DNA of 63,997 nt, the filler included, from Collodictyon triciliatum (Eukaryota): NCBI GenBank assembly GCA_043381765.1. It is 5 parts of 5 records of this genome, joined end to end, with 100 filler letters (N's around TTAATTAATTAA, not from the genome) between each part and the next. Parts side by side here need not be neighbours in the genome. Positions count along the whole stretch, not along the records: positions 25,809 to 38,589 come from JBHJMP010002100.1; 4 more parts are not named here. One strand, 5' to 3'. A model generated the notes under the pieces. The model had not been told where the DNA came from. It saw only the letters and a program-made list of their open reading frames with translations, and made no database searches. A program made the translations under genes and the position numbers. Below are positions 12,920-54,600 of this stretch, in pieces; the first letter of the stretch is position 1; each line of letters starts with the position of its first letter.

Positions 12920-15900
12920 TGAAAAGGAAATTTAAAATATGGTTTCATACTTGGAGATTTCACATCGATGACGACGACCGGTACTGTCTGCGTTTCGTCG
13001 ATTATAGGAGTACTGTACATACACATGATGTAAACATCGCTTCCTGTGGATGCCGATGTTGAGTAGAGGCAGCTGGGGAGCGATGGCGAGATGTTCTCCC
13101 AATTTCCTGTGGGTACATCTACAGCTATTTATAATCAATCAATTCATTTTGAAACTGCAATATTGTCAAACATTTTTATTTACTTTTCCTTTATACGATT
13201 CAAAGTAAAGCATATCTCGAGTTAAATACGTTTATGTATATAAAAACCTATGTGCACCATCTGTGACTCCGTTTCTGTTTTGTTGATGCAATAGTGCTAT
13301 ATTTACGAAAATGAAAAACTCGTCCATCTGTACGAAATATGACCAATGACGAGAAAATCATCTGATAAGTTAAAATAAACCTTATTGATGTCGTTCTGGT
13401 AAAACCCTTCCTCACACGGAAAGCACTCTCCACTTGGTGTAATGTACTTGTTTATCTGGCAGACGCATAATAGGCTCACAATATCGAATCCATTTGGACA
13501 GACTAAAAATAATTGAATTTTTTTGATAAATGAGCTTTCGTGTTGAATTTAAACCCCCTCTTTGCTTATTATAACCCCCAAAGAGACTTCGAATCAGAAT
13601 AACATACAGATAGAGTTGAGCGAGAATCCTCCTCTTGAGACCAACTGCCTTGATGTATGGAATGTTATGAGAAACGATGAACCAGGTATCTTGACCCACA
13701 CACCAGGACCCAGAGATGACAGTTTTACCTTGTTAACAAAAAATAAAAATAAAAGCATGTTAATACAATAATCAATAGAGTCAGGATATGAATGAATTGA
13801 TGTTTCGATTTTTTCAAATACATACATCGACGCCGCTATCGACTTCATTCACATATACGCTTTGGTCTCCACACTTATTCAGTGACTCGACATCCACGAC
13901 AGAAAAAATATCCGTATCCATCGCGGATATCTAATGATTACGAGCGTTCAACTCTTTTGTTTGCATACTAAATGATTTACATCGCATACAGTGCTTTTTC
14001 AAAAAAAAGTTCACGTACCACTAGGTTGTTTGTGTTTGAGACCCTCCACGAACATTCTGTAAAAGGCATATATCCAAACGAACCACTGCCGTCGGTTATG
14101 CTTTGTACTCCATCTCTAGCATCAATAGCCACTTCTCCGTAGCAGAACATTTTGCCTGTAATATTGGAATGAAAACACGTATGAAATATCATTCCATTAT
14201 TTTAATACAGAAGACATGAAACGTTAACAAGGTAATCAAATCCTATTTGAGACCTTACACAAAAATCATCCATCTACTATCGATATTTTCTTCAAAAGAG
14301 CTTACCCATGTCATATCCAAATATACGTGGGTCATCCGACTTTTCATTTTCAGCTCCAATTACAACAATCCATTTGTTTAAGGTGATTGTTCTGTGCATT
14401 TTGAATGGAGGAGGGCGATTCTGGGCAGTCTCTCTCATACCCCACATTCCTGCATCTACATTTTATACAAAAAAAAATTAATATGTTAAAGTTTAAGCTT
14501 CAAAAATTAGATCACTTTCAGATTGTTGACCGAATGGAAATAATTCAATCAAAATATTGTTGAAAATACCATAGTTGTAAATCCATATGTTTGGTGAAAA
14601 CGTGTTTGTCAAGTCCTCGCCTCCAATGAGCAGGCCAGCTCCAACATCGATGAAGGACGAGTACAAATAGCTTTCTATGTTCATATCTGAATTCTCGAGC
14701 TGATTCCATGTTTGAAGGCCTATGAGAGAAATATTGACAGTTGAGCGCATCTTCTCAAAATAATTCGAGATTATTTTAATTGAACTAAGGCATGAAAATT
14801 AAAAAAAAACTCGCCTTTGTTGAAGCACCAGATGTCCATTATTGGATTATAATCAACATCCATTCCTCCTTGAATACAGAATTTTCCGTTATGAACAAAT
14901 CCAGATGCTTGAATCCTTGTCTGCATTCCCGGATATCCGTCATAGAGCTCAGCAGTATTCGTTTCCATACCGTAGTATATTAATGTCGTTTCGTTAACAG
15001 ACCCTTCGTATCCAGAGACATAAATTCCTCCCCAAAATATAATTGTGGAATCAATGGTGTATGTAGCTTGCTGTGTCATGAAACCAAGGTGAGAAACACT
15101 TGGGTCGATTTCAAGCCATTCCCATGTATCGGAACCTTTTTATGTAGAGAATTAACAGCTGTATTTAACACTCAAATCTAAACACAAAATTGGCAAATCA
15201 ATATAGCAGAAATATTATTTGTATATGATTCACGTACTAAGGTGATAACGAAAGGTAATTCCATCGGGATAAAACTCTAGCCCTTCTCCTCCGATGACAA
15301 AGAGAGTCTCGTTATGATATGATAGAGTCTGTATTTTTTTCAATTTGATTTTATTTTCATTAATAAATGAGAAAATATTAAGCGGAATTCTTGTTACAAA
15401 ACCTCCTCCTTTCAAATGAATGAAGGACAAATATTATCGAAAAAAATAAATCTGTAAATTATATAATTGGCGTTCGAGTATGTCTGCTCACAGAAAAGGC
15501 AGCAGGAGGAGCATAATCCTTGGGGCTAGAAGGGTCATACATTTTCTGTTCGAACAGACGAATCCACTTCTTCGAGCCTATAAATTTTTTTCTGGTCAAA
15601 AGGCTTTTTTCCTGTGAAAGTAATTTGCAAATATCTGTTGTATTTTTATTTCTTTAAATTTTTAATAACATACTTAATGTAAAAATCCACAAATCGTTCA
15701 TGGAGAATACATTGAAACACTGAGTGACCCCTCCATAGAATGCGAAACTGTCTTCTGATAGCTTCATAACAGACGGATACTGGCGCGATATGGGGTAAAA
15801 TCCAATTGAGGAAGTATCCCACACTTGAGTTACTGTTTTTTTTTAAAAAAAAAGTGATAAATAATTGAGCTTATGGTTTTAACTACTACTTTGATGCATT

Positions 15901-29200: not shown

Positions 29201-30810
29201 CCACACGGGTCCGCTTACGACGTTTGTCCTCTATACCTGCCGTTTCATGCCATAATCCCATATGAAATCAGTTTTTCTGAAAAAAAGAAGATAAAAGAAT
29301 ATGCGTGATGCACATCTCAGTGCCTTTACATATCAGGTATCCTATACATTTGTAAAGCCATCTGCGCCCTCTGTGGTTCCCATGAACAAACGAGTTTCTC
29401 GAGAGAAATGGGCTCCTGCCAAAACGTCATACTATCGCAAAGTCGACGTATGATGGCATCCACCCTCGAATTTTCTTGATTCTCTCTTTTTTTTTTAAAA
29501 AAAACAACAACAACAATTTGCTGGATATTAACGTAATTCTGATTTATTTGTGCCAATGTCAATAAAATTCTCACGGCAATCGCACATTTCACACAAAGCT
29601 GGAACCCATCAAAGCTCCACATCACATCCCCTCTATCAAATTCGATCGCATGTCTGGGCGTCATCAAGTCGCCACCCAAAAAGACATGGTCGACTCATCC
29701 GTCGACCCCGTGTATCCTTACAGCCCCGAACGTAACACTTTCATATGTTTTCATTACTTCTAACCATCTTAACACCTTGGCAAAACATGTATTACAAAGC
29801 AGTTGTCCCCAAAAAAAAAAATCAACACGAGGAACTAAACTCCCACTTCTGTTGTCAAATTCGGACTCTTGCAGTGGTGAAAGACCTCCTTGGCCACCGC
29901 ACGCCCTCTCCAAACCTGAAAAAGATGCCGCCTCGGAAGCCCCTGATGGCTAACATGCTCGACCAGTACTTGCTTGTTCCCTTCCTTAATTTCATTTGGA
30001 TGCAATGCCTTTATTCACAACGACAGGATTCGTAAAGGGTTAAATGTATAGAAGGACCATCTTTGGTGCTATATCTAGTCTTGTCCTTGACACCATGATT
30101 AAGAAATAGAATCAATCCGATATCATCCTCAAACACTCCCAAACAACTTCACCTAGGGTTTATGATATTCAAGAATCCAAACTCTACCATAGCCATATTT
30201 CCAACGTCCATGATTTTGGAAAGGGCCCAGGACACAGGTCAGCCAACCAATCATATTTTTAATACGTCTTTTCCCTGGATTGGACTCTTCTTGATTTCTG
30301 CTAACTGTTGAATTCACACAGAGAACTGAACAATTTCAACGCCGCAGATGTGATATATGACGCACATGTCCCTCCAAGGTAGCATACCACATCGATTGAT
30401 CGGCACAAAGAAATATCACCAAGAAATATCACTGCTCTTTGTCAGCAGATATCGTGAAACTTTCAGATGTATTTCCTATTGCTTGTTTCAGATTATTAAT
30501 GTTTTCCGATTCTATCTTAGGCATAGTCCCTCGCCTGACTTAATGAGGCAAGTCCCCAGAGATAAGGCCACCTCGATATCGATGAGAGAGAAAATCACTT
30601 CCCTGGACGTGGTTTGTCCTCTTCCTTTCTCCCCTCACCATTCTTTTTTTCTTATTAGTAATACATGCATTTAAAACAAACTAAGATATATTCCATTCTC
30701 GACTTTGTTACAATTAGATTTATGAACCTGATTGGTCTCGTCTTCTTCCTCGTGTAAAAGGCGACCCGATGATTGAGCGGCAGTTGTCGCGTTCCCCAAA
30801 CATTTTCTGA
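26272..30810 (+). CDS. ODF3/STPG1 (SHIPPO-repeat)-like Pro/Ser-rich basic protein, probably axonemal
   Basis: GT-AG exons give repeated P-x-x-x-Y-x-P motifs (PPPVGHYRP, ETGRYSP, TPEPYSP...APSFTFPKDR, PVYPYSP, SPRVYD, DVIYEP). The last exon IYEPDWSRLLPRVKGDPMIERQLSRSPNIF ends in TGA at 30808-30810. Confidence 0.55.
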
Positions 30811-31359
30811 GCCTGCGCGATGGTCTTCTGACCAGATAATCCGTTTTACATTTTTCCACGCATCTTCCTTCTCTTTTTTTTTTTCCTTTCCTCTTTTTCT
30901 TCTTTTTTCTTTTCGGATGTTTTGACAGTTTGCTCCCTTAAAAGAAGACATCGCTGGTTATCGGTGTGTGGTTCTTTCATAACCTCTCATGCAACTACCA
31001 GACGGGTTATTATCACACCACATTCATATTAAAACAAAGAATTCCTGGTTGGGTGGATGATGAATTATAATGTCGCGTTTGTGGAGGATTGTTGTATCCA
31101 CCAGACTGTAATTATTATTATTTTTTTTTGTCTTCGCGAGCCACACTATCTCCATGAAATAGTTCATACTTTATCTAAGGTTTCCTGAAAGTCGCGACAT
31201 TGATATGTGCATGGCGGGTGATGTGACTAAAAAAGCAAACCATCCTCTTTCCTTATTTTCCTTTTATTTTTTTCTCCATCTGTTAATGTGGACTGCGGGT
31301 GGATGACTTGTTCCTGTGGTACTGTCTCTAATGACGACAGAGTGCATATAAAGAGCTCC

Positions 31360-34300
31360 TCACCCATCAATCTGGCATAATGACAGGGCTTTCAGATCGC
31401 CGTAGGAGGCTGCGCTTTGGTTCCAACATGGAAGAGTCGAAATCTTTGAGTCAGCAAAAATGACCTTGACAAGGAATAGCGCGTGAGTCGTACATAAGTG
31501 ACATATGATATACAGATAATTTCATTCTACGGACAAAACTGTGCGGACAGCTCTACCTTCTGCTCGATGCCATATCGCCGATATAAATTTAAATGCATTT
31601 ATTAGAAACTGTAAAATATAGTCTTTGGTAATGATTTGAATCTTACGACCTTTGATTTAGAAACCTCGTCAACACTGTCGTGATAGGGTGCGGTTCCATG
31701 TGTTATAGTTATACAAAGATATCAAAGGGTAAATGGATGAATAAAAGTCACAGCCTAGTTTAAATGATTCAAGTGGATGGTTTTAGGGTGATGACGCGCA
31801 GTTCAAAATCGACCAGATAAAAAAGGTTGTGATTCGGTAATCATTCATCCAGGTTTTGATACTGATAAAAGTTTTCATGGTCTTCAATAAAGGATGCAAC
31901 AGCCAAAGATATTATGAAGAGTGTTACATCCTTTGAATTTTGTTGACATTTTTTTTTAAAAAAAATTAAATATATTCTAAAAAAAACACCTCCATTTAAG
32001 TTATATGGTGTACTTACATTCTTTGAGAATTATTTAAAATTTTCAAAAAACTGTTGGAAATAGGAGAGAAAGGAAGGGTTTGGATTCAAAATTATGTTAT
32101 AATGCATACTGCTAGATTTATAATTATTTACTCACATCCTGAAATCATTTATATTGAGTACTTGATGATAAAATTGGAGATTTAAATTATTGTCCTCTTA
32201 CTTCCTAAAAGAAGGGGGTTTTCTCTCAGAAAAGTAGAGCATATACCCGGTGATTGTGATTTGACTTACATCCTACATTTACAAAGTGATTGAGAAGGTG
32301 GGAATAGCAAGAGGATGTAATTGTTCCGTTGATATCAGTCATATATTATTTTGGAGGATTGGTACTCACATTCCTCGGTTTACGGCCACACTTGCAAAAA
32401 AATTTTTTTTGAGTGGAGGATTTACATTCATCGAATAACCGTATTCAGAGAAGATGCTATTTACATACGTACTTACGGATATTCAATATTTTAAGGGTCA
32501 ATTACATAAAAAAATTAAAATGATTTAAACGGTGAAGATTTTGCTCACGTAATTCTGCATTTCCTATTATGATTAACAAGTTTAATAATTGAAAAAACAA
32601 TCAACCAAACAGTCAGTTTCATGGCCAGGCCTTCGAACTCATCGTATTACTTGGATATGGAGAACAGCCAGTTTTTTCAATTTTGTGATGGACGAAGGTA
32701 TTTCGGATATCTGTAATTGTGTTAAATGTGTAAATGTGCAGGAAGTGGTTTATTTTACATGATATTACGAAATTATTTTGCATCTATACACATACTTACA
32801 TAGTTATTTTGTAAGTGCAGAGATTCCAGCAGAGTCAAACAATATATTGGTTCAGGAATACAGGTAAACTAGAATTATTTGATTGTTTACAAAACAGTGA
32901 GAGATGGGTTGATTTATTGAATTCATATTCATTTTCAGATCATTTATATTTTAAAGAAATCCGAGTAATAAATGCCTTCATGTACTTTGTTGTATGATAT
33001 GTTTAACTCTGTAAGAGCCACCAGTTCAGATATCCGGTCTGGAAGAGATGCAATCTATGTAATGTGTGGAATTTTTGGCTACACTTTTGATTGTATGGAA
33101 TACATGAGCGAGAATATAGGATTAAGTATATATCGGTGTGAGTATACATTGTTCTTTGATGCGTCAAGGGCTATAAAAGAAGGCAGAAGAAATATCGAGG
33201 ACGGGATATAATTCAGCTCTCTGGATGAGATGCTTAGGATATTTTGTAGCAGCGCAATAGTCTTTAGAATTTTCTTGTCCTCCAGACCGAAGCGATTATG
33301 AGAAAAATTCATCATTTTCAATTTGGAAAGTAATCTCATGTCAGGTAGATGGTCTATCTACAAGTTTCAAAAAAAAAATGCACATGAACACGAAGAATGA
33401 AATAGAGGTCGTGATAAATTAAAAAAAAAAAAGAGTTTGTCAGACTATCATCTCGTTCCATTTAGAATTTCAGACTTGATTATGATCAGCGTTGAGGGAC
33501 TGAATATTTGCCAAGCTCGGTATACCGTGTCCCAGCGATGATAACTGCAACGTGTAAATCGAAATGTCTATTTAGAGGTGTTGGTATATTTTGGGAGTTG
33601 TTTTCTTGGAAGAAAAAATTACGATATTTCTAGATACGTCCAGCTTTTTCAATAATGAAAGATATTGGATTTCGTCGGGCAAAACACTCATCTAGAAAGA
33701 AAAATAACCCGCAGTTATAAAAATACTTAATTATGACATTAATCCAGGTTATTTTGTATTTCAAAAAGATATGTATGTGAAAACCTTTGTCCCGTTGATA
33801 TTCAAATGTTCTATTCTTGTTAAATTAAAAAGTTCCACAGGTAATTGAAACAGCTAGCCAAATTTCATCATAGTAAACTGTTATTATTATTTTTACAAAA
33901 AAAAAAAAAACTAATAAATTCATAAACTACCAAAAATGAAACTTGTGAGGGGGGTTTTTTTTTTTTGAAAAATAACATCATTCCGTAAAGCTTGGAGTAC
34001 TGCTAAAAATGAAGATAAAATATTGATTACACTTACGTTAAGAAATTGCAAAAACATGGTATTCAAATTGGTCAAGCGGGATATCTGACTTGGTAAGGAG
34101 TCAACCTAGAATGTTTGAAATTTATAATATGTGATGTGGGCTATATATTAGTTTGTAAAATAACGTAAATAAGAGTCAATACAGGATTCCCATTGAGAAA
34201 TAGAGATTGTAGACGCTCCAAGCGCATGAATGACTCTGAAAAATCAGTAATCTACAACATATAATTCCATGATAAGGCTCAGCTGATACGCGTATTATGT

Positions 34301-35077
34301 CATGAATTCAAATTCTATTATATTATCATCAGCCGATTAAGGTATAGCCATATGAGTTAAAAAAATTGAAAAAATTGTAAAAGAATGAAAATAATGAAGT
34401 CCAAAAAGGAATATGTGCTATTTAAATAATTTATAATGATGGCTTTGAGAGAAATTCATACAGGGTTGTGATTGATTCCTATTTGTTTCAACGTTGGCAA
34501 GTCACCGATGCATTTAGGGATGGTCACAAACTAAAGGACATAGATAATGTGTCATGAGTGGAGTCTTAAGGGAGAAAGAGAAAAAAAACGGGGGATAGGA
34601 AAACTAAGTTTTGACAAGAGCTATTTGTCTTGAAATACAACATGGATGACCAACTTTATTTCTATTGACATCCAGCCGTGTAAGGTTTGACAGAACGGAG
34701 AAGCCATCCGGCAAGTATGAAAGCTTTCATCAAACAAATTGAACGGTTTTATTAAAGGCGAATACTTTCTCTCAAAATGGGATTTCGATAAGTTTTGCTG
34801 CCTAGCAGGGATGTATGAATCGAAGATACAGTTAAGGTATTGAAGAAACAGGCACCTGGTTGTCATCCAGCCACAGCTCCAACAGCAGCGTCATTTGCAT
34901 TATGGCGCCGGGTAATCGGGATATCTTCCTGTCGCATAGGTAAAGCCATGTTGCGTCGACAAGTCTCTCGTTCAGAATTGTCTTTGGCGAATATTTCGGC
35001 TTCAAGGCCTCCAGCTCAAGAACAGGGTCACGCTCTTGGTGTTGATTGCCATCCTCATCCATTCTATCTGTGCACAT
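31360..35077 (-). CDS. Leucine-rich repeat protein B (one 23-aa LRR per 69-nt exon; micro-exon linker)
   Basis: Exon 1 VLELEALKPKYSP...ATWLYLCDRKISRLP...LWLDDNQ. Eight 69-nt phase-0 exons (e.g. 34462-34530 FVTIPKCIGDLPTLKQIGINHNP). The terminal exon 31360-31464 VIFADSKISTLPCWNQSAASYGDLKALSLCQIDG* is homologous to the paralog's FTSLPCWTNEDGMDYEDIIQLQLFD*. Confidence 0.88.
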
Positions 35078-35848
35078 GAATTATTTCGTTGACACAGGGG
35101 TGTCTTTCTTTTGCTTGTTTATTATTATTATTTTATTTTTTTTTTAAAAAAAAGGCTTGCTCAGACAACAGCTTCTTTTTTTCTTTCACAACTCTAGCAT
35201 GGGATTCTATTCTATCATAAAATTTGCTTTTACATCTGCATATAGACTGAGAATGAGAAAAAGTCTTACAGGATAATAGAGATGTGGTGAAGTGAAGAGG
35301 CTAAAAAAAAAAAAAGGAGTAAAATGAATGACAGACGCAGCCGATCTGCTCGTGGCCGACCTTTTGCAGAGAATTGAGAGGGGTGAGAGAAGTAGAGTTG
35401 CCATTTGGTTTCATACACGGCCAGTCAGATGCGCCTCGCCTTGTAACTTCTCTTCTGACAAACCCCATCTCCCCATCCAGTTGGCATTGGTTTGGCATCA
35501 AAGCGGGAAGCTGGCATGTTTTCCTTTCCGAAATATCATGGTTGTTATATCTGTATCCTTTTTTGTTTTTTTTATCTGAGTGAGCTCCGCACTCTATTAA
35601 ACTTTTGATGGTGGGTGTAAACTCGACGAAAAAAGAAAAAGAGAAAACAGGGGGTATAGAACTTGTCGTTTATTCGTTGGTGGTCCGGGATGGTGGATTC
35701 TTATCCGGAGAATTGCCAGACTCTTCTGCTATGATTTTGGTGAGAACAGTTCAGTCCGTCGCAGCAATGCAGAAAACAGAAAAAGAAGCATGAAATGAAG
35801 GTAATTCAAGTGTATTTACAGGAATATATGTAGGAAAAAACTTTATAC

Positions 35849-37576
35849 TTAGTCAAACAGCTGCAGCTGAATGATGTCCTCGTAGTCCATGCCATCCTCG
35901 TTTGTCCAGCAAGGAAGAGAGGTAAAGCCGCGAGGGACGCGCTTCAGTGCCACTGAGCGTCTGTGACTTATCCTCAGTTTGATGAGCCCAGTAAGATGTG
36001 TCACCTCGACCGGGAGAGATTCAATCTAGACGATATGTTAAAAGAATTGATAGCTAGAAGGCATGGAGCTAACGACAAAGCAACTGGCTTGCTTCGGTCG
36101 CATAATGAAAAGAAAGAAGAAAAAGATGAGGGATAAAAAGATGGGAAGGGAACTCCTCCAGAGAGAAAGAGAAAGGGAAAGGGAAAGGGAAAGGGAAAGG
36201 GAAAGAGAAAGAGAAAGAGAAAGAGAAAGAGAAAGAGAAAGAGAAAGAGAAAGAGAAAGAGAAAGAGAAAGAGAAAGAGAAAAAGAGAAAGACCGTACGG
36301 GGTTGCCCCAGATGGCAAGGTAACTGAGTCTTGTGAGGCCGGAGATGCCAGGAGGCAGTGCAGAGAGGGAGTTCTCAGCCAGGTTCAAGTCCCTCAGATG
36401 CACCAGAGACGAAATCTCCGGGGGCAGTGAAGAGATCTGGTTGGAGACGAGGTAGAGGTCCGCGAGGAGCGAGAGGCTGCAGATTTCGATGGGGAAGGTG
36501 GTGAACTTGTTCTGATTGAGCTGGAGGGTGGTGATGTTTGTCAGGAGGGAGAAGGAGGCAGGGAGGGAGGAGAAGCAGTTGTCGATCATGTTGAGTTTGC
36601 AGAGGGAGGCTAGCTGCGAGAAGTTCTCGGGGAGAGCCGAGAGGCTGTTGCGGCAGGCATGGAGGTCCTTGAGGTGCCGGAGGTGGGCGACCTCGTCGGG
36701 GAGCTGCGCCGGGGTCTTGTCGTCGAGATAGAGACAGGTGCAGGCGGCAATCTCGCCGGGGGGGCCGTAGAGTGGGCGCAGCCTGTCGAGGTTCTTGACG
36801 GCGCCGTCCGCATAGCAGGCCAGCAGGTTTGCGGGGATCTGGTCGGGAGCCACGCCCGAGAGGTAGAGGGCCCTGAGGTTGGTGAGGGCGGAGAGGCCGG
36901 GCGGCAGGGCGCTGAAGGCGTTGTCGTGCAGCTCCAGGACGGCGAGGGCCGTGAGCGCAGAGAGCCCGTCGGGCAGCCGCGACAGGCCATTGCCGCTGGC
37001 CTGCAGCCGCGAGAGGCCGCCAAGGCCCGAGACCCCGGCCGGCAGCAGCTCCAGCCGGTTGGAGGCGACGCGCAGCTCGGCCAGCCCGGCCCAGGCGGCA
37101 ATGCCCTCGGGCAGGGCGGCCAGGCGGTTGCCTTCCACATTCAGAAACGTCAGCCGGGTCAGCTGCGCCACGCCCGCAGGCAGCCCGCTCAGCGCGTTGC
37201 CCCCCAGATTTAGATGCTCCAGCGCCGTCAGCAGCGACACGCCCGCAGGCAGCTCGCTCAGCGAATTGCCCTCCACGTTCAGCAGCGTCAGCCTCAGGAG
37301 CAGCGACAGCGTCTCGGGAAGCTCGCTCAGCGAATTGCCGGACAGGTTGACGTGCGCAAGGCCCTCCAGCAGCACGAGCCCTGCAGGTACCCGGCCCAGC
37401 GTCCGCTGCTGCGACAGCGACAGCCACGTGCAGCTTGCAAGCGTCTCCGGCCCGTCTTCCGGGTTCCACCTCGGCCCGAGCGCCAGCAGCTCCTGCAGAA
37501 GTTGTCCGCGCTCTTCCTCGCCGCTTGTTGTTGTTGTTGTTGTTGCTGTTGTTGTTGTTGCTGCTGGCTCAGACAT
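35849..37576 (-). CDS. Leucine-rich repeat protein A (GC-rich, two exons: 36299-37576 and 35849-36025)
   Basis: Repeating LxxLxxLxLxxNxLxxLP units. Donor after AIWGNP (gtacgg), an intron containing a (GAAAGA)n tract, and an acceptor before IESLPVEVTHLTGLIKLRISHRRSVALKRVPRGFTSLPCW...FD*. Confidence 0.92.
36160..36291. repeat. (GAAAGG)/(GAAAGA)n in the single intron of LRR gene A
   Basis: Direct reading. Confidence 0.95.
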
Positions 37577-38435
37577 CTTTGTCCGCTCTACAGGGGTGAT
37601 TAGCAAGGGAGTTTGCTTATTTTTCTGTTTTTTTCCTTATTTTTTTGGCGTAGTTATTTGGCTTCCAATCTCTCGCGTGGTGGGTTGCTTGTTCTGTCAG
37701 CTGCTGATTCATTTTCTGCTGTTCGATAACCTGCTCCCGCTCGCGCTGGTTTTTTTTATTCTGGTGGGTTTCGAAGGTGGGAATTCTGGGATTACATGGA
37801 TTCCCGAAGTTCTATGTCGTGCATCATGCCTAATTGTGGAATGCATCGCGGTCTGTTTTTTTTGTTCTTGTCTGAAAAAGCTGTGTGGACGGTAAAGTTG
37901 TGTGGAAACGGATGTCAGTCTCAGCGCTCGACTATCTGATAATGGCTGAAAAAATAATATCCAAGAGCCCCGACACGTCCAGAGTACGCCTCTCGTTCAT
38001 CTCGCACCGGCCTTTTCTAATTCTAATAGTGCAGATTCCTTAAGAAAGCTGTAGATTTCTTCGCTCCTATCCCAGGCACAACAGGTCAAGTTTCTACCAT
38101 TTTCTTCTTTTTGGTCGCATTCATTCTTTGAAGCAGATTTCTGTCGTAACTCCTACATACCGAAGTAGCCCTAAAGTAAATCGCCCAAGTTCGATGATTT
38201 GATGTGAGAGTTGATTGAGTTTAGTATTATTTTTCCAGTCTCATTTACTTTCATAATATGTTTTCAAAGCTGGGCGCACAGGGAGCCCTTGACATTGATT
38301 TATCAATCCTTTAAAATATCAAAAAAAATGCACTTGTAGATATTATTTGTATACCAGAGTTGATGACACGCTTATTAAATGTGCGTTTTTTTTTTTATGC
38401 ATGTATTTTGAAAATGGGGTTCCATATCCTTTAAC

Positions 38436-38689: not shown

Positions 38690-41600
38690 CCATGTGCATT
38701 CAGAATTTGGATAGTACTTATAATCTCCACTTCCATCAGATATAGTGAGGTCATTGGCTGTAATGTATGAGGTTCCTCGGCACCAAAGCTTGCCTGAAAT
38801 TATTTTCATGGTTAGTAAGTTGTAAATTTAGACTCCGTCTTAGACAATCTTCGCTTTATGTCTCAATAATATAATTCTTGTCCAATAGTCTCAAATTTGA
38901 ACTCAAAACCTACTCAAATCAAGTGAGTATAGTCCATTTGTGGTGTCACTCTCCGCATCGCCTCCAAACATGTATATTTTACCAGATAATAAAATGGAAG
39001 AAGAGTATGCCCTTCCTGGTGCTCTGGTTGTCTGTCCTGTAAGTAAACTCCACTCGCCAGAATCCACTTATTGGAATGGGTTTTAAATTATAAATGTTTA
39101 CAGCTTTTAAAATATGTAAAAAAAAAAAACTATTTTAAAGGTAAAAATTACCGTCGCCGATCCAAAAATCTCTTGATAGAAAATTTTGTTGATCGAATCC
39201 TCCAAAAATGAAAAGATGAACATCATATCCAAGCACAATATTAAAATCTGGAGCAGTTGGTGGCACATCTCCGTATTTTTCCCAGCTATTTTCATCTATA
39301 AATTTACTATGGTTTAATATTCGTGAATTGCTTTTCTTAAATATATATATGGATTGTGATGAAATGAAACCTTCATTCCAACACCATATTTCTCTATCCG
39401 GCACGTAGTAAGATGTGTAGTCAACAAAGCAAAATTGGTCGTGAATTAAGACACCTTGAGTTGACCATCGTACTTGTGGTATGTTTGTGGTATTCACAAT
39501 TTCAAGTCCCTCCGTATTCGACATATCAAATATTAAGATTCCATCCAATGAGTCGGTAAAATCAGACATTGCGCCACCCCAAAGGATGAATTTGTTCTCT
39601 CTAACGATGTACGCTGAATCAAATCGCATTCCAATCGAAGAGTATGTAAATGAATCCGCTATAATAGGTGACCATTCTCTTGTATCTAGGATAAAAATCG
39701 GAAACAGTCGCTAAACTTTTTTAAAAAAAAAAACATACAAAGCTACCCTTTGATGATATAATACGTATAAAGGTATTTCCATTTTTACTCACTGAATGAG
39801 AACTGAAGCATAACTGGTCCATAATATCTTCTGTAATAACCGCCAATAAGATAAGCAGTTTCGTTCCAGTAGCCAAGAGACTAATATCAAATAAAAGCAA
39901 TTAAAGTCTTCATTTCAATTTTATGCAAATAATAACAACAATAATTGTTCTAATGCAAATATAAATAATAATAATGTCAATACCAAATAAATAGACCAAT
40001 CAATCATGAATCACAACGCTAATAAACACCGAAATCTAATTGTTGCCACTTACAGCGTAAAGAACAGCAGGAGGACATGTCAGTTGAAATGGCGAACAGA
40101 CAGACTCTCGGTGAATGATATCCCATTTTTTTGAGCCTAAGAAGAAAAAAATTACCATAAGTGGGATATCAGATATTAAACCACATGTATGGGGATGTGA
40201 AAATATTGCATTTTTCTTATGTTCGATTATAATTATATTATTTAACTTACTAGCATGATATATCCATAAATCATTTATCGGCTGGTATGCTGAATAGCAT
40301 ATCTGTCCACCAAACAGGAGAATCTTTGAGTCTGATACTTTTGCAAGATGAGCAAATCTTCTGCTTAACGGATACATAGATAGGCTACTATTGGTCCAGG
40401 CATTCGCAACTAATTTGAAGTGGAAACTTTAGCTTCCAAAAAAAAAAAGCGGTAGCATTAACGGAAAGAATGCAGTATAAATATAACCTGCATCAAACAC
40501 CCAAAAGTCATTTTGGTAACAATAGCTGATACCACCGGCAGTAATTAATTTGGGTCCAATGAAAGCAGTATATGCATGAGAGCGTGGGGATGGTACGGTT
40601 ATAGGATAAGTCGAAAGGTGCGACGGTGTGCGCCCGTATATGATTCTGAAAGTGTCATGAACTAGTGGTGTATGGGATGCATTTTACTCCAAAAAGAAAA
40701 AAGCATTCTGACTAAACGGTCATATAGATGCATAATTGGAGCTAATGATTTTGCTATAACAAAGACGTAAAAACTCTTACTCAAATCAATGATTATAATG
40801 TTTCCAGAAGATATGGTTTTTCCAGCAGAAGAATACGTCCCACCAAAAATGTAAAGTGAATCTTCATATATACTCGTCGACCCAGAGACCACGGATATCA
40901 TACCCATGAACGTGGTTGGAGTTTTCCATTTATGCTCGGCTGGTGAGATGAGAATATTAAAAAAAAAAAACTATAATGAAGGTGGATTTGGTGCAGTGAT
41001 TTCATGTTCATTCGGGAAAAAAACTATACTGATGTTAAACTTCCACAAAACCGGTTGGTTGATTCCGTCATAACCATGCCCTCCGAAAATCAACAAGGAG
41101 TCTTTATAATTTGACATATGCGTGTAGTAAACCTTTGGTGCATACACTTGGTTATCATTTGCTGGAATTATGTTTCTCCAAGCCCGAGTTTCTGCGAATA
41201 TTTTTCATTTGTTATAGACTTATTTTATTGTTCCTGGGAGTGATTATGGATCAATAGTCAGTACGCACCTATATTTAAGGACCAAAGGTCGTAGGTAACG
41301 CCCCCCGTGAAGCCTGCGTACAGATAGAGATAATTTTGATATCCAACAATCTTCATATTTTCTCGCTCAGAGGGAATCGCGCCAGGTGCATATATTATCT
41401 TCTCCCATCGGAGTGAATTGAGGTCGAGGCGAAACATGTCATTGACGTTTGCTGCACCCTTAATAATTCGGCCTCCGAATAGATATAACTTTCATAATAA
41501 TAGTTTTTTTTTAATTGAGAATACTGAATTGGACAAGGGAGCTATGAAAGGATATCATATAGCTTGAAAAAAATACAAACTGAATTTTGATGTGACGTAA

Positions 41601-51616: not shown

Positions 51617-51697
51617 AAAAAAAAACAAAAAAAAACAAAAAAAAAACACAAAACAATAAATCATAAATAATAAACATTTTACCTTCAATCTCAAGTC

Positions 51698-54600
51698 ATG
51701 CAACAGATGCAGCACAGAGGCAGACAGAGCAGCCACACCCAACGCACTCTCCCACCACATGAAAAGCACAGAAGGGACAGCAACGACGAAAACAACACCC
51801 CACAGCACAACGCACCCGCAGGCCTTCGCCAATCGGCGCTTTACGCCACAGGCAACAGAGCCCGCACAAAGCACACCTCCCCACTTCGAGAGAGACACAC
51901 ACCCAAGAAACTTGTAGATAACACCTCTGAAGACGCCCATTCAAATGACCAACCACACACAAAGTCACAAGCCAGCAAAGCCAGCCCACCAAACTGCAGA
52001 GGTATCCACAGCACAGAGGCATCGATGCGTGCATTTGGTTACGGATTCGTGGGTGATTCTCACAAGACACATCGTCTCAACGATATTCTCACCAGCTCAG
52101 ACTCGATGCATCTTGCGCCTCTTCTGGTTAACCCGCAAGATGCCGATAAAGATTGCGGAGAGTCTTTGTTTTGCATCTCTTGCGACTCGTCTGAGGCCTC
52201 CGATGTGCCTCATCAACAGTCCCATCTGCAGTATCCACCCGCGCCTTCTCTGGCTACTCCATGCGCGCAAGACTGCGTCTCTGAGTCAGAACTCTCATGC
52301 TCAGTCTATGTGCAAATCGAAGCCCTTGTTGTTTCAGATGCCCTGTCTACTGATTCTGCTGCAATCGAAAAGGAGTCGCCTGAAGCGATTGTTAGCTCGG
52401 AAGAAGCCGAAAAGTCGAGCCTGCATCCTCTTTGCAAAGCAGAGACCGCCTCAATAGCACCAGTCAGCGATGGAAAAAGAATGAATCCCCGCACTGATGT
52501 CATCACAGGTGTGATTACGTCTCCTGTGCGAACGGCGAATCAGAAGCCTCTGGACTTAGAGGAATGCATCCATGCGGCAAAGCGGGCTCTCGACTTAAAC
52601 GGAGCTGAGGATTTCTCCACTGACATCCATCACCCACCTCTGGTAACGGGAAGACAGAACGAAGTCCAACGTATCCATGACTTTTGGATTTCCCATTTGA
52701 CCCAACGCCGCTCGGGTGCCATGTATGTTTCTGGAAAGCCCGGCACAGGAAAGACTCTTGCCATGAACAGAGTCATGGATGCCGTTGGGTCATGGGTTTC
52801 TCAGGTGATTATCTGACCATTCATACATGCCAGAATTATAAATTCCTCTTTCTATAATTTTTTTTAAGGATAAGAAAAGTATGTTTCTGAATGCGTAATA
52901 AATTTGGGCATATTTATTTTTATGACAGAACCAACCCCATGAGCATATTGTTGTATATATAAATTGTCTTCGAGTCAATTCCAAGACCGCAGAAACCTTT
53001 TACAGCGACCTCATAAAAGCCTCCAACATCCCTATCCTTGGAAAACGACCCACCCAAGCAGAATCAAAGTATTTTTTCCGAGACCTGGTCAAGCAAACAG
53101 ATGGACCCATGGTGTAAGTTTTGAGCGACGAATGTCAAAAAAGAATGCAGCACAAATAATGCCACTACAATTTCGTCTATATGAATGTGATTTGATAGCA
53201 ACCCATGGTTTCTTCTATTTTTTTCATAGTTCTTTAATCGCAGACGAAATGGATGGCCTGTCTGGAAACATCCAACTCTTATACGAGCTCTTTGATATGG
53301 CATCACTGAAATCCTCTCACTTAGTATTAATTGGTCTGTGCTTTGATGACGATTTTTTAAATCATTTATAATAATGCGTTTGCAACACTTTGCATCATGT
53401 AATCCTCATCAAACATACGAATTTCTTGTTTAGCCACACTAGCATAACTACACAAAAATAGTCTGGATGTTTTTCACACCGCATAACATATGAACTCATT
53501 GACTATAACACGCTTGTATTCTATATCAGGTATTGCAAACAGTCTTGGTTTCACTGAGCAAGTTCTCCCAAATCTGAGAAAAAGAGAGAGTACTGCCTCC
53601 TTTTTAAAAAATAGACTCACTCTAACTGTAGTTTACTAAAATCAACTTCTGATCGATATATTTTTGCGTCATTTATCTTTTAGTGAATAGTATATACGAA
53701 TCCCCAATATGCATTCATCTTATAACAGTTTAAATTAATTACAAACAGTTTTGCCTGAACTTGTTCAGTACTCACCGTACGACAAAAATGCAATTATTAC
53801 GGTTCTTAAAGAACGCTTAAGATGTTTACCAAAGAAGTTTATCGATCCGTGTGCATTGGAGTTGTGTGCTGCTAAGGTTTTTGGATTTGCAGAATACGAA
53901 AAAATGGATAAATTATAGGCATTTAAAAAATTATCTCTTTTATTTGCTCTCACTAACATATATTCACCAAGATGAAATTAAGTGCGTGCAATTCGACAAT
54001 TTTGTTTATTTACGCTCTATTTACACACCAAAGGTCGCATCTCTTCATGGAGACATGAGAATAGCCCTTGATTTGTGCAGGTCATTGTCCAAACATGAAA
54101 ATGTGCATAATTTTGTTGCTTAGCACGGTGTTTGAAACTCTTTTTTTTTTTATTCTTATATAGAGGAGCCATTGAAGTTGCCGAAAGAGAGATATCTAAA
54201 CCGAACGCGAACAAAATATCCATAAATGAAAACACCTACGAGAGTATGAGCCCTGGAGAACCCTTCGTTGTCACCACACAACACATGCGCAAAATCCTGG
54301 TTGACTTTATGCCCAGCAACAACGAATCGCCAATATCGGGGCTCACCACACATCAAAAGCTTGTCTTGTGTGCGGCAACTAAGCTTATACTTGGAAGAAA
54401 AGGGAAGCGCAGCCCTGTGAATCTGGCGCAGGTGTGTTTATACAAGATGGACAGATAACTGCTATCCAAAATCTAGTGCTTCTTTCTCCTAATATTTACG
54501 CTAATGCAGCTCAAGAAGGGTTATCATGCGCTTTACTCCTCATTCCTCACTGTATCCGACATGTATGTACTAAATAAGTAATATCAACAAAAGAGGAGCT

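Follow-up and report, generated by a model that had tools for sequence, protein, structure and literature searches.

A probable chain of tiny in-frame exons near the 3' end of a leucine-rich repeat gene of Collodictyon triciliatum

Results

We analyzed a 63,997-nt stretch of Collodictyon triciliatum DNA (GenBank assembly GCA_043381765.1) made of parts of five records joined end to end; we call this whole stretch the window, and all positions count along it. The window is AT-rich (about 37% G+C) and holds many microsatellites. Its minus strand carries two paralogous leucine-rich repeat (LRR) genes, paralog A (approximately 35659-37576) and gene B (31086-35069). Our subject is a region of 1,186 nt within gene B (31465-32650, minus strand), here called the array region, which a preliminary description of the sequence had read as a run of nine consecutive single-codon exons. 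A scan of the entire window with Rfam at gathering thresholds gave no matches.

The two LRR genes lie only 800 nt apart and contrast strikingly in composition and structure. Paralog A has its LRR part in a single long exon and is GC-rich (57 to 58% G+C at 36001-38000, in a neighborhood of 30 to 40%) and nearly intron-free, whereas gene B is AT-rich and has an intron per repeat. Paralog A matches the Pfam families LRR_8 (E = 1.2e-29), LRR_14 (E = 5.4e-29), and LRR_4 (E = 6.4e-23), and its closest relatives are LRRC40/SHOC2-like proteins (30% identical), an indication that the collections searched lack proteins of C. triciliatum. In gene B, each exon corresponds to one repeat: nine exons are exactly 69 nt long, eight of these nine end in N-x upon translation, and the 23-residue exons carry the pattern LxxLxLxxN. 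There is also one exon of 210 nt and a final LRR exon of 60 nt (32651-32710). The only Pfam match of the 70-residue exon was LRR_13 (E = 0.002, below the cutoff); a protein search with it found no longer protein, and a comparison with 1.84 billion representative sequences returned five weak LRR matches, the best with 53% identity over 21 residues. The gene B product is a generic LRRC40/SHOC2-like LRR protein, and nothing marks the recognition role that had been proposed for it. Nine introns of gene B are confirmed by contig joints and measure 78 to 132 nt, and its ordinary introns overall span 78 to 209 nt. The ordinary donors of the gene are notably weak (for example, gtctga, gttttc, and gtatac).

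The joints come from contigs of three sequencing runs of one study (X1, X2, and X3), which we compared with positions 30500-36150. The RNA nature of these runs is our guess and not on record. X1 (from a relative referred to here as organism A) and X2 nevertheless behave as RNA of two close relatives, with spliced joints and poly(A) ends, and X3 gave low-complexity pieces only. Differences from the window amount to about 2% in exons and 3 to 5% in untranslated region and intron, and most are common to both runs. Twelve joints were listed. Seven of them show CT..AC ends as they stand, corresponding to GT..AG on the minus strand; another has GT..AG on the plus strand and belongs to a convergent neighbor gene. 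Three more have one to three unplaced letters and are canonical if a difference beside the boundary is allowed. The twelfth, in X2, leads from 32646 to 31649, in the array region. X1 has no contig on 32400-32650, and neither X1 nor X2 covers exons E3 to E5 (33902-34468).

Read along the minus strand, the array region follows the last ordinary LRR exon, E12 (32651-32710), whose joint 32710/32800 is present in X1 and X2 and whose donor is GTAATA at 32650. At 60 nt, E12 is 9 nt short of the 69-nt one-repeat exons. The first candidate micro-exon (32549-32563; GAAATGCAGAATTAC; flanks aatag and gtgagc) has 15 nt, or five codons ending in Asn-Tyr, and supplies the N-x ending seen in eight other translated 69-nt LRR exons. 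It is followed by the one-codon unit TAC (32469-32471; cgtaag-TAC-gtatgt), which we infer to be used in RNA, and by a candidate 21-nt exon of seven codons (32370-32390; flanks tttgcaag and gtgagt), with about 52% G+C in surroundings of 30%. Six further one-codon units come next: GAT (32270-32272; atgtag-GAT-gtaagt), GAA (32202-32204; cccccttcttttag-GAA-gtaaga, with the best pyrimidine tract in the array), GAT (32136-32138; tttcag-GAT-gtgagt), AAT (32018-32020; tcaaag-AAT-gtaagt), GAT (31928-31930; tcaaag-GAT-gtaaca), and GCT (31752-31754; aactag-GCT-gtgact). The last two units are GTC (31647-31649; preceded by tcaaag) and AAG (31557-31559), separated by a segment of 87 nt (31560-31646) that the preliminary description had modeled as an intron. 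The acceptor of GTC is a proven 3' splice site, as 31649 is precisely the first position of an X2 piece and the part skipped ahead of it has AG at its end. The donor of AAG is a proven 5' splice site: one X1 contig and one X2 contig lack the last intron (31465-31556, 92 nt; joint 31464/31557, cut shift +2).

The terminal coding exon (31360-31464) comprises 34 codons and a stop and is followed by the 3' untranslated region of gene B (31086-31359), which an X1 contig covers to 31086 and an X2 contig to 31208. Homology of the terminal exon to the tail of paralog A had been claimed from the sequence and was borne out (9 of 22 residues identical to the last coding exon of paralog A; E = 2e-5 by BLASTP). 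Two differences from the relatives fall in this exon (31429 and 31432), both at third positions and synonymous in frame. Because of the homology, a reading frame must be carried through the array region. The length of each proposed exon is divisible by three, all are open, and each of the 11 candidates is preceded by AG and followed by GT[AG]. The resulting introns measure 87, 77, 78, 97, 65, 63, 115, 87, 173, 102, 87, and 92 nt, compared to 78 to 132 nt for the nine confirmed introns of gene B. In the coordinates and flanks of all nine units, the preliminary description was accurate.

Next to the sequence features, we considered how often such units occur by chance. A pattern scan found exactly nine AG-NNN-GT[AG] sites on the minus (coding) strand of the array region, compared to four on the opposite strand. 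The minus strand of the whole window has 91 such sites and the plus strand 82, means of 1.66 and 1.54 per 1,186 nt; the maximum for any stretch of 1,186 nt is nine on the minus strand, reached only where it overlaps the array, and six on the plus strand. None of 5,000 dinucleotide-preserving shuffles of the region reached nine sites (mean, 0.96; maximum, 5). The enrichment is specific to spacing: when AG-to-GTR distances of 0 to 15 nt were counted, only a distance of 3 nt was enriched, with nine sites against zero to four at the other 15 distances. Spacing 0, in which AG abuts GT, occurred twice (about 1.4 expected, no enrichment). The extended donor GT[AG]AG was observed 8 times, compared to 1.5 expected per 1,186 nt.

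The units are also regularly placed and have strong donors. Their smallest center-to-center gap is 66 nt, which nine randomly placed sites matched in 151 of 200,000 trials; with the 15-nt and 21-nt exons added, random placement of the eleven sites kept such gaps in 2 of 200,000. The three next-densest clusters in the window (five or six sites each) look random, with weak donors and irregular gaps. At donor positions +4 to +6, which lay outside the search pattern, the match to A-G-T averages 2.0 of 3 in the array and 1.0 at the 164 other AG-NNN-GTR sites (P = 0.0013 by a Mann-Whitney test). The donors of ten micro-exons average 2.3, compared to 1.27 for 11 ordinary gene B donors, 3 of which were assigned from the sequence only (P = 0.015). 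Branch-point-like YTRAY motifs were rare in micro-exon introns and ordinary introns alike and were uninformative. Together, these results support the view that the units, placed between two in-frame exons on the coding strand, have the character of splice sites under selection.

The sole contig seen to be spliced through the array region is X2 record 12 (612 nt). It holds the exon 33148-33357 and the next three exons, passes from 32646 to 31649, continues to 31555, and ends with 25 letters of the terminal exon. Position 33148 corresponds to letter 237 of the record; adding 69, 3, 66, and 65 letters gives letter 440 at 32646, and the next piece occupies letters 493 to 587. The 52 letters in between match nowhere on the window, and the aligner placed nothing inside 31650-32645. 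The same coordinate sum gives the length of X1 record 6 exactly (555). Counted from the exon end at 32651, the unplaced insert is 57 nt, or 19 codons, which equals the all-inclusive model (15 + 3 + 21 + 18 nt, the last being the six codons up to GCT). The alignment passes the donor by five letters, as would be expected if the next letters were the start of the 15-nt exon (GAAAT, compared to GTAAT in the intron; four of five match). This exon is the only 1 of 32 AG-x-GT candidates that explains the run-on. The preliminary description had offered a 6-nt first exon (32549-32554) with the 15-nt form as its extension; the sequence is present, and the longer form fits the run-on where the shorter one fails. 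As to the junctions that had been predicted, the acceptor at 31649 and the intron 31465-31556 are used exactly, whereas the 87-nt intron proposed between GTC and AAG is retained.

We enumerated the canonical chains that start from the 15-nt exon and total 57 nt, with introns of at least 55 nt. The total was rejected as a unique fingerprint, with 809 chains fitting it, 27 of them with all pieces 17 nt or shorter. Among all of these, the chain proposed in the preliminary description ranks first by donor strength. Every solution requires three to nine exons of 25 nt or less, and for this reason the presence of micro-exons between 32651 and 31649 is a robust deduction from this total, more so than any number of single-codon exons.

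Discussion

We consider it probable that the 1,186 nt represent a chain of micro-exons and not one intron, with about twelve short introns (63 to 173 nt) between tiny in-frame exons. The chain as such is probably real, and our confidence is lower for the use of all nine units. The likeliest set would be the 15-nt exon, the 21-nt exon, and six to nine single-codon exons, which would specify a short linker of largely acidic character, composed mainly of Asp, Glu, and Asn, before the conserved C-terminal peptide. We infer the identity of the tiny exons behind the 52 letters, the order of splicing, and its purpose.

Several results weigh against the full chain. The evidence for splicing comes from two runs of one study, from relatives 2 to 5% diverged and with a guessed RNA label. 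The 52 letters of X2 are known by count and not by identity, so that no micro-exon was read in RNA, and 105 of the 809 chains are open, some with four exons only (15 + 21 + 18 + 3 nt). The 21-nt exon, although present in the genome with AG and GT flanks as described before, was left unplaced in X2 despite 18-nt pieces being placed elsewhere; it is either absent from the X2 contig or different in that relative. The pyrimidine tracts of the micro-exons (0.50) are not enriched relative to the background (0.52; ordinary acceptors, 0.59). Organism A has AT for the donor GT after GTC (G to A at 31646) and ACT for GCT (a change at 31754, with AG and GT intact).

The spliced X2 contig itself keeps 31560-31646, with an in-frame TAA TAA, and translation of the assembled contig would stop short of the conserved tail. 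X2 record 12 and X1 record 5 both cover 31555-31649 unbroken, and the donor GT at 31646-31645 is unused in the X2 contig. An isoform lacking the stop-bearing segment should exist or once have existed, since the terminal exon is homologous to the tail of paralog A and its differences are synonymous. Finally, an 845-nt contig of X1 is unspliced over 31555-32399, across seven of the proposed exons. It is colinear with the genome (28 differences and 4 gaps) and stops at an A8T9 tract around 32400. A second X1 contig (31438-31584) is also unspliced, across the last intron. The depths of these contigs (13.2 and 7.1, respectively) exceed those of exon contigs (4.4 to 6.9), a measure that cannot rank parts of one gene. 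The longer contig could be detained precursor or a separate transcript starting inside the intron near 32400. It fits a micro-exon chain in that introns beside plant micro-exons are often detained, according to PMC8831610.

Some of these observations would also be expected if only a few tiny exons were real, such as those of 15 and 21 nt with one or two more, upstream of a single 93-nt exon at 31557-31649 (GTC, the 87-nt segment, and AAG). Most one-codon units would then be unused, maybe as relic exon boundaries or as stepping-stone sites whose codons are partly left out of the mRNA. Open four-exon chains of the kind mentioned above do add up to 57 nt, the only spliced contig includes the 93-nt segment as one exon, and organism A has lost the donor after GTC. 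Moreover, the 93-nt segment resembles a decayed LRR exon: the best match of the array region to a profile of the gene B LRR exons starts within it, at 31640 (21 of 1,000 shuffles reach the score). We nevertheless find this explanation unlikely. It fails to account for the ninefold enrichment of the one-codon units at one spacing, for their strong donors, or for their regular gaps. Pieces of 18 and 21 nt should have been placed by the aligner, and nothing in 31650-32645 was placed in X2; the 18-nt exon would also have to use as its acceptor the AG inside a GTAAG donor.

It is very improbable that the region is a single ordinary but unusually long intron and that the AG-NNN-GT units in it are chance occurrences or relics with no use in splicing. 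A direct splice from 32651 to 31464 would be in frame and would leave a spacer of 8 residues, nearer to the 14 of paralog A than the 29 of the full model, and X1 is unspliced across most of the region. However, X2 splices into 31649 instead of 31464 and carries 52 extra letters, the enrichment, spacing, and donor statistics all oppose chance, and the other introns of gene B reach only 78 to 209 nt. Hardly credible is the idea that a repeated AGGA(A/T)GT core (which we take to resemble an ETS-type GGAA/T site) marks an internal promoter or clustered protein-binding sites, with the unspliced X1 RNA as a separate intron-internal transcript: four units share AGGA[AT]GT, a fifth has AGAATGT, and the X1 contig ends at 32399 with a depth above that of exon contigs, but the similarity runs into RAG[TA] after GT, which is a donor feature, the enrichment is confined to the coding strand, and neither the spacing, the X2 joint, nor the 52 letters would be explained.

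A 3-nt exon is too small to hold 3' and 5' splice-site complexes at the same time, and therefore the introns of a micro-exon chain would have to be removed one after another. At each step, the growing upstream exon would be joined to the next codon, exposing the next strong GTRAG donor. The process would resemble recursive splicing in which every turn of a ratchet adds a single codon. Its likeliest purpose would be to split a stretch approximately 10 times the usual intron length of gene B into pieces of a size suited to the spliceosome, the linker residues being no more than tolerated in their place behind the last repeat and ahead of the conserved tail. As all units are in frame, regulated skipping is possible; no alternative micro-exon isoform was seen in the contigs of X1 and X2. 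We put forward only tentatively, and with some doubt, that the spliceosome handles six to nine consecutive single-codon exons by an obligatory, ordered, recursive-like ratchet that clears the 1.2-kb spacer, and that the length and charge of the linker can be altered one residue per step by step-skipping or intron detention.

The origin of the array can be addressed in part from its borders. The 15-nt exon restores the N-x ending absent from the 60-nt exon, which suggests that a former LRR exon was interrupted by a new intron. On marginal evidence, an exon that once began with GTC and ended with AAG may have decayed and had its interior intronized. The recurring tcaaag acceptor, noted in the preliminary description as a hint that the array grew by duplication of exon-intron units, is present in three of the nine units, but recent duplication of units, like an introner origin, is not supported. 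The 12 array introns showed no similarity to each other or to 11 ordinary introns (253 pairs compared; best z, 3.7). Apart from A/T runs, the array region is unique in the window, and a repeat search found splice-motif matches only.

To our knowledge, exons of 3 nt have been found only singly, as curiosities, and exons of at least 6 nt make up the longest micro-exon runs described. The micro-exon genes (MEGs) of Schistosoma contain 10 to 20 very short symmetric exons per gene, of 6 to 81 bp (3 to 81 in the abstract) and mostly 15 bp, with introns of 0.1 to 5 kb (10.1101/2023.06.21.545858). Gene B would be like them in having consecutive micro-exons in multiples of three, any subset of which could be skipped in frame. 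In MEGs, however, nearly the entire gene of a secreted, schistosome-specific protein consists of micro-exons and the introns are long, whereas the candidate micro-exons of gene B are mostly 3 nt long, are confined to the tail of an LRR gene, and are separated by introns of 63 to 173 nt. With its 69-nt and 210-nt exons and its ordinary introns of 78 to 209 nt, gene B falls outside the MEG family.

In plants, micro-exons of 1 to 15 nt need strong flanking signals, with GTRAGT donors at 1-nt exons, and the introns beside them are removed consecutively (PMC8831610). An adjacent pair of 5-nt and 12-nt exons arose there by stepwise intronization (PMC8831610 and PMC11096116). The available text of these two papers describes at most two adjacent plant micro-exons, compared to nine to eleven proposed for gene B. 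Human RPS24 has consecutive exons of 3, 18, and 22 bp that are alternatively included (PMC12207440 and PMC11162997); these are three micro-exons in a vertebrate gene, one of them a single codon, and the chain proposed for gene B is longer. Isolated spliced 3-nt exons have been described in MAP4K5 and in Drosophila homothorax (PMC8632122 and PMC7392893), one per gene as opposed to an array. At the ratchet points of Drosophila, a long intron is removed stepwise at juxtaposed acceptor and donor sites with strong regenerated donors (10.1101/006163 and PMC8605326). Such sites leave no nucleotides in the mRNA and lie in very long introns, while gene B has 3 nt between AG and GT and a region of 1.2 kb; in the array, spacing 0 is found twice and spacing 3 nine times. 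Our literature search, whose coverage largely excluded subscription journals and supplements, found no paper describing a run of single-codon exons. The gene B chain would thus be an extreme variant of micro-exon clusters, beyond any that we found described.

If the chain is used as proposed, it would be the hardest known test of splice-site pairing when an exon cannot hold both complexes. It would imply a fixed order of intron removal and link micro-exons mechanistically to recursive splicing. It would also provide a compact natural minigene of 1.2 kb for the study of minimal exon size, splicing order, and intron detention. Gene finders and standard RNA aligners would miss the end of gene B, and similar chains may be hidden elsewhere.

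Other observations in the window

Paralog A, which had been described as intronless, has at least two introns, and only its tail is a single exon. One intron of 121 nt (35728-35851, minus strand) directly follows the stop codon (TAA-gtataa) and is spliced in X1 and X2, so that the 3' untranslated region is interrupted exactly at the stop. The last coding intron (36026-36330) contains a 131-nt AGAGAA microsatellite, (AGAGAA)n at 36162-36292, which would read as a long Ser-Leu/Ser-Phe run if left unspliced. This intron is confirmed by an X1 contig whose loose end at 36025 matches the exon near 36330.

Downstream of gene B, a plus-strand gene converges on it; this neighbor has an intron at 30611-30716, and its X1 and X2 contigs have loose poly(A) ends at 31064. 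With a gene B contig ending at 31086, the 3' ends of the two genes are only about 20 nt apart.

Farther away, successive open frames on the plus strand (51674-54458) include a Walker A motif (GKPGTGKT) and a DEMD box. Their only Pfam match, AAA_16, is below the cutoff, and from the motifs we take them to be an ORC1/CDC6-like AAA+ gene. Kelch-repeat-like open frames with weak Pfam matches, also below the cutoff, occur on the minus strand at 14771-15139, 39135-39710, and 40036-40428.

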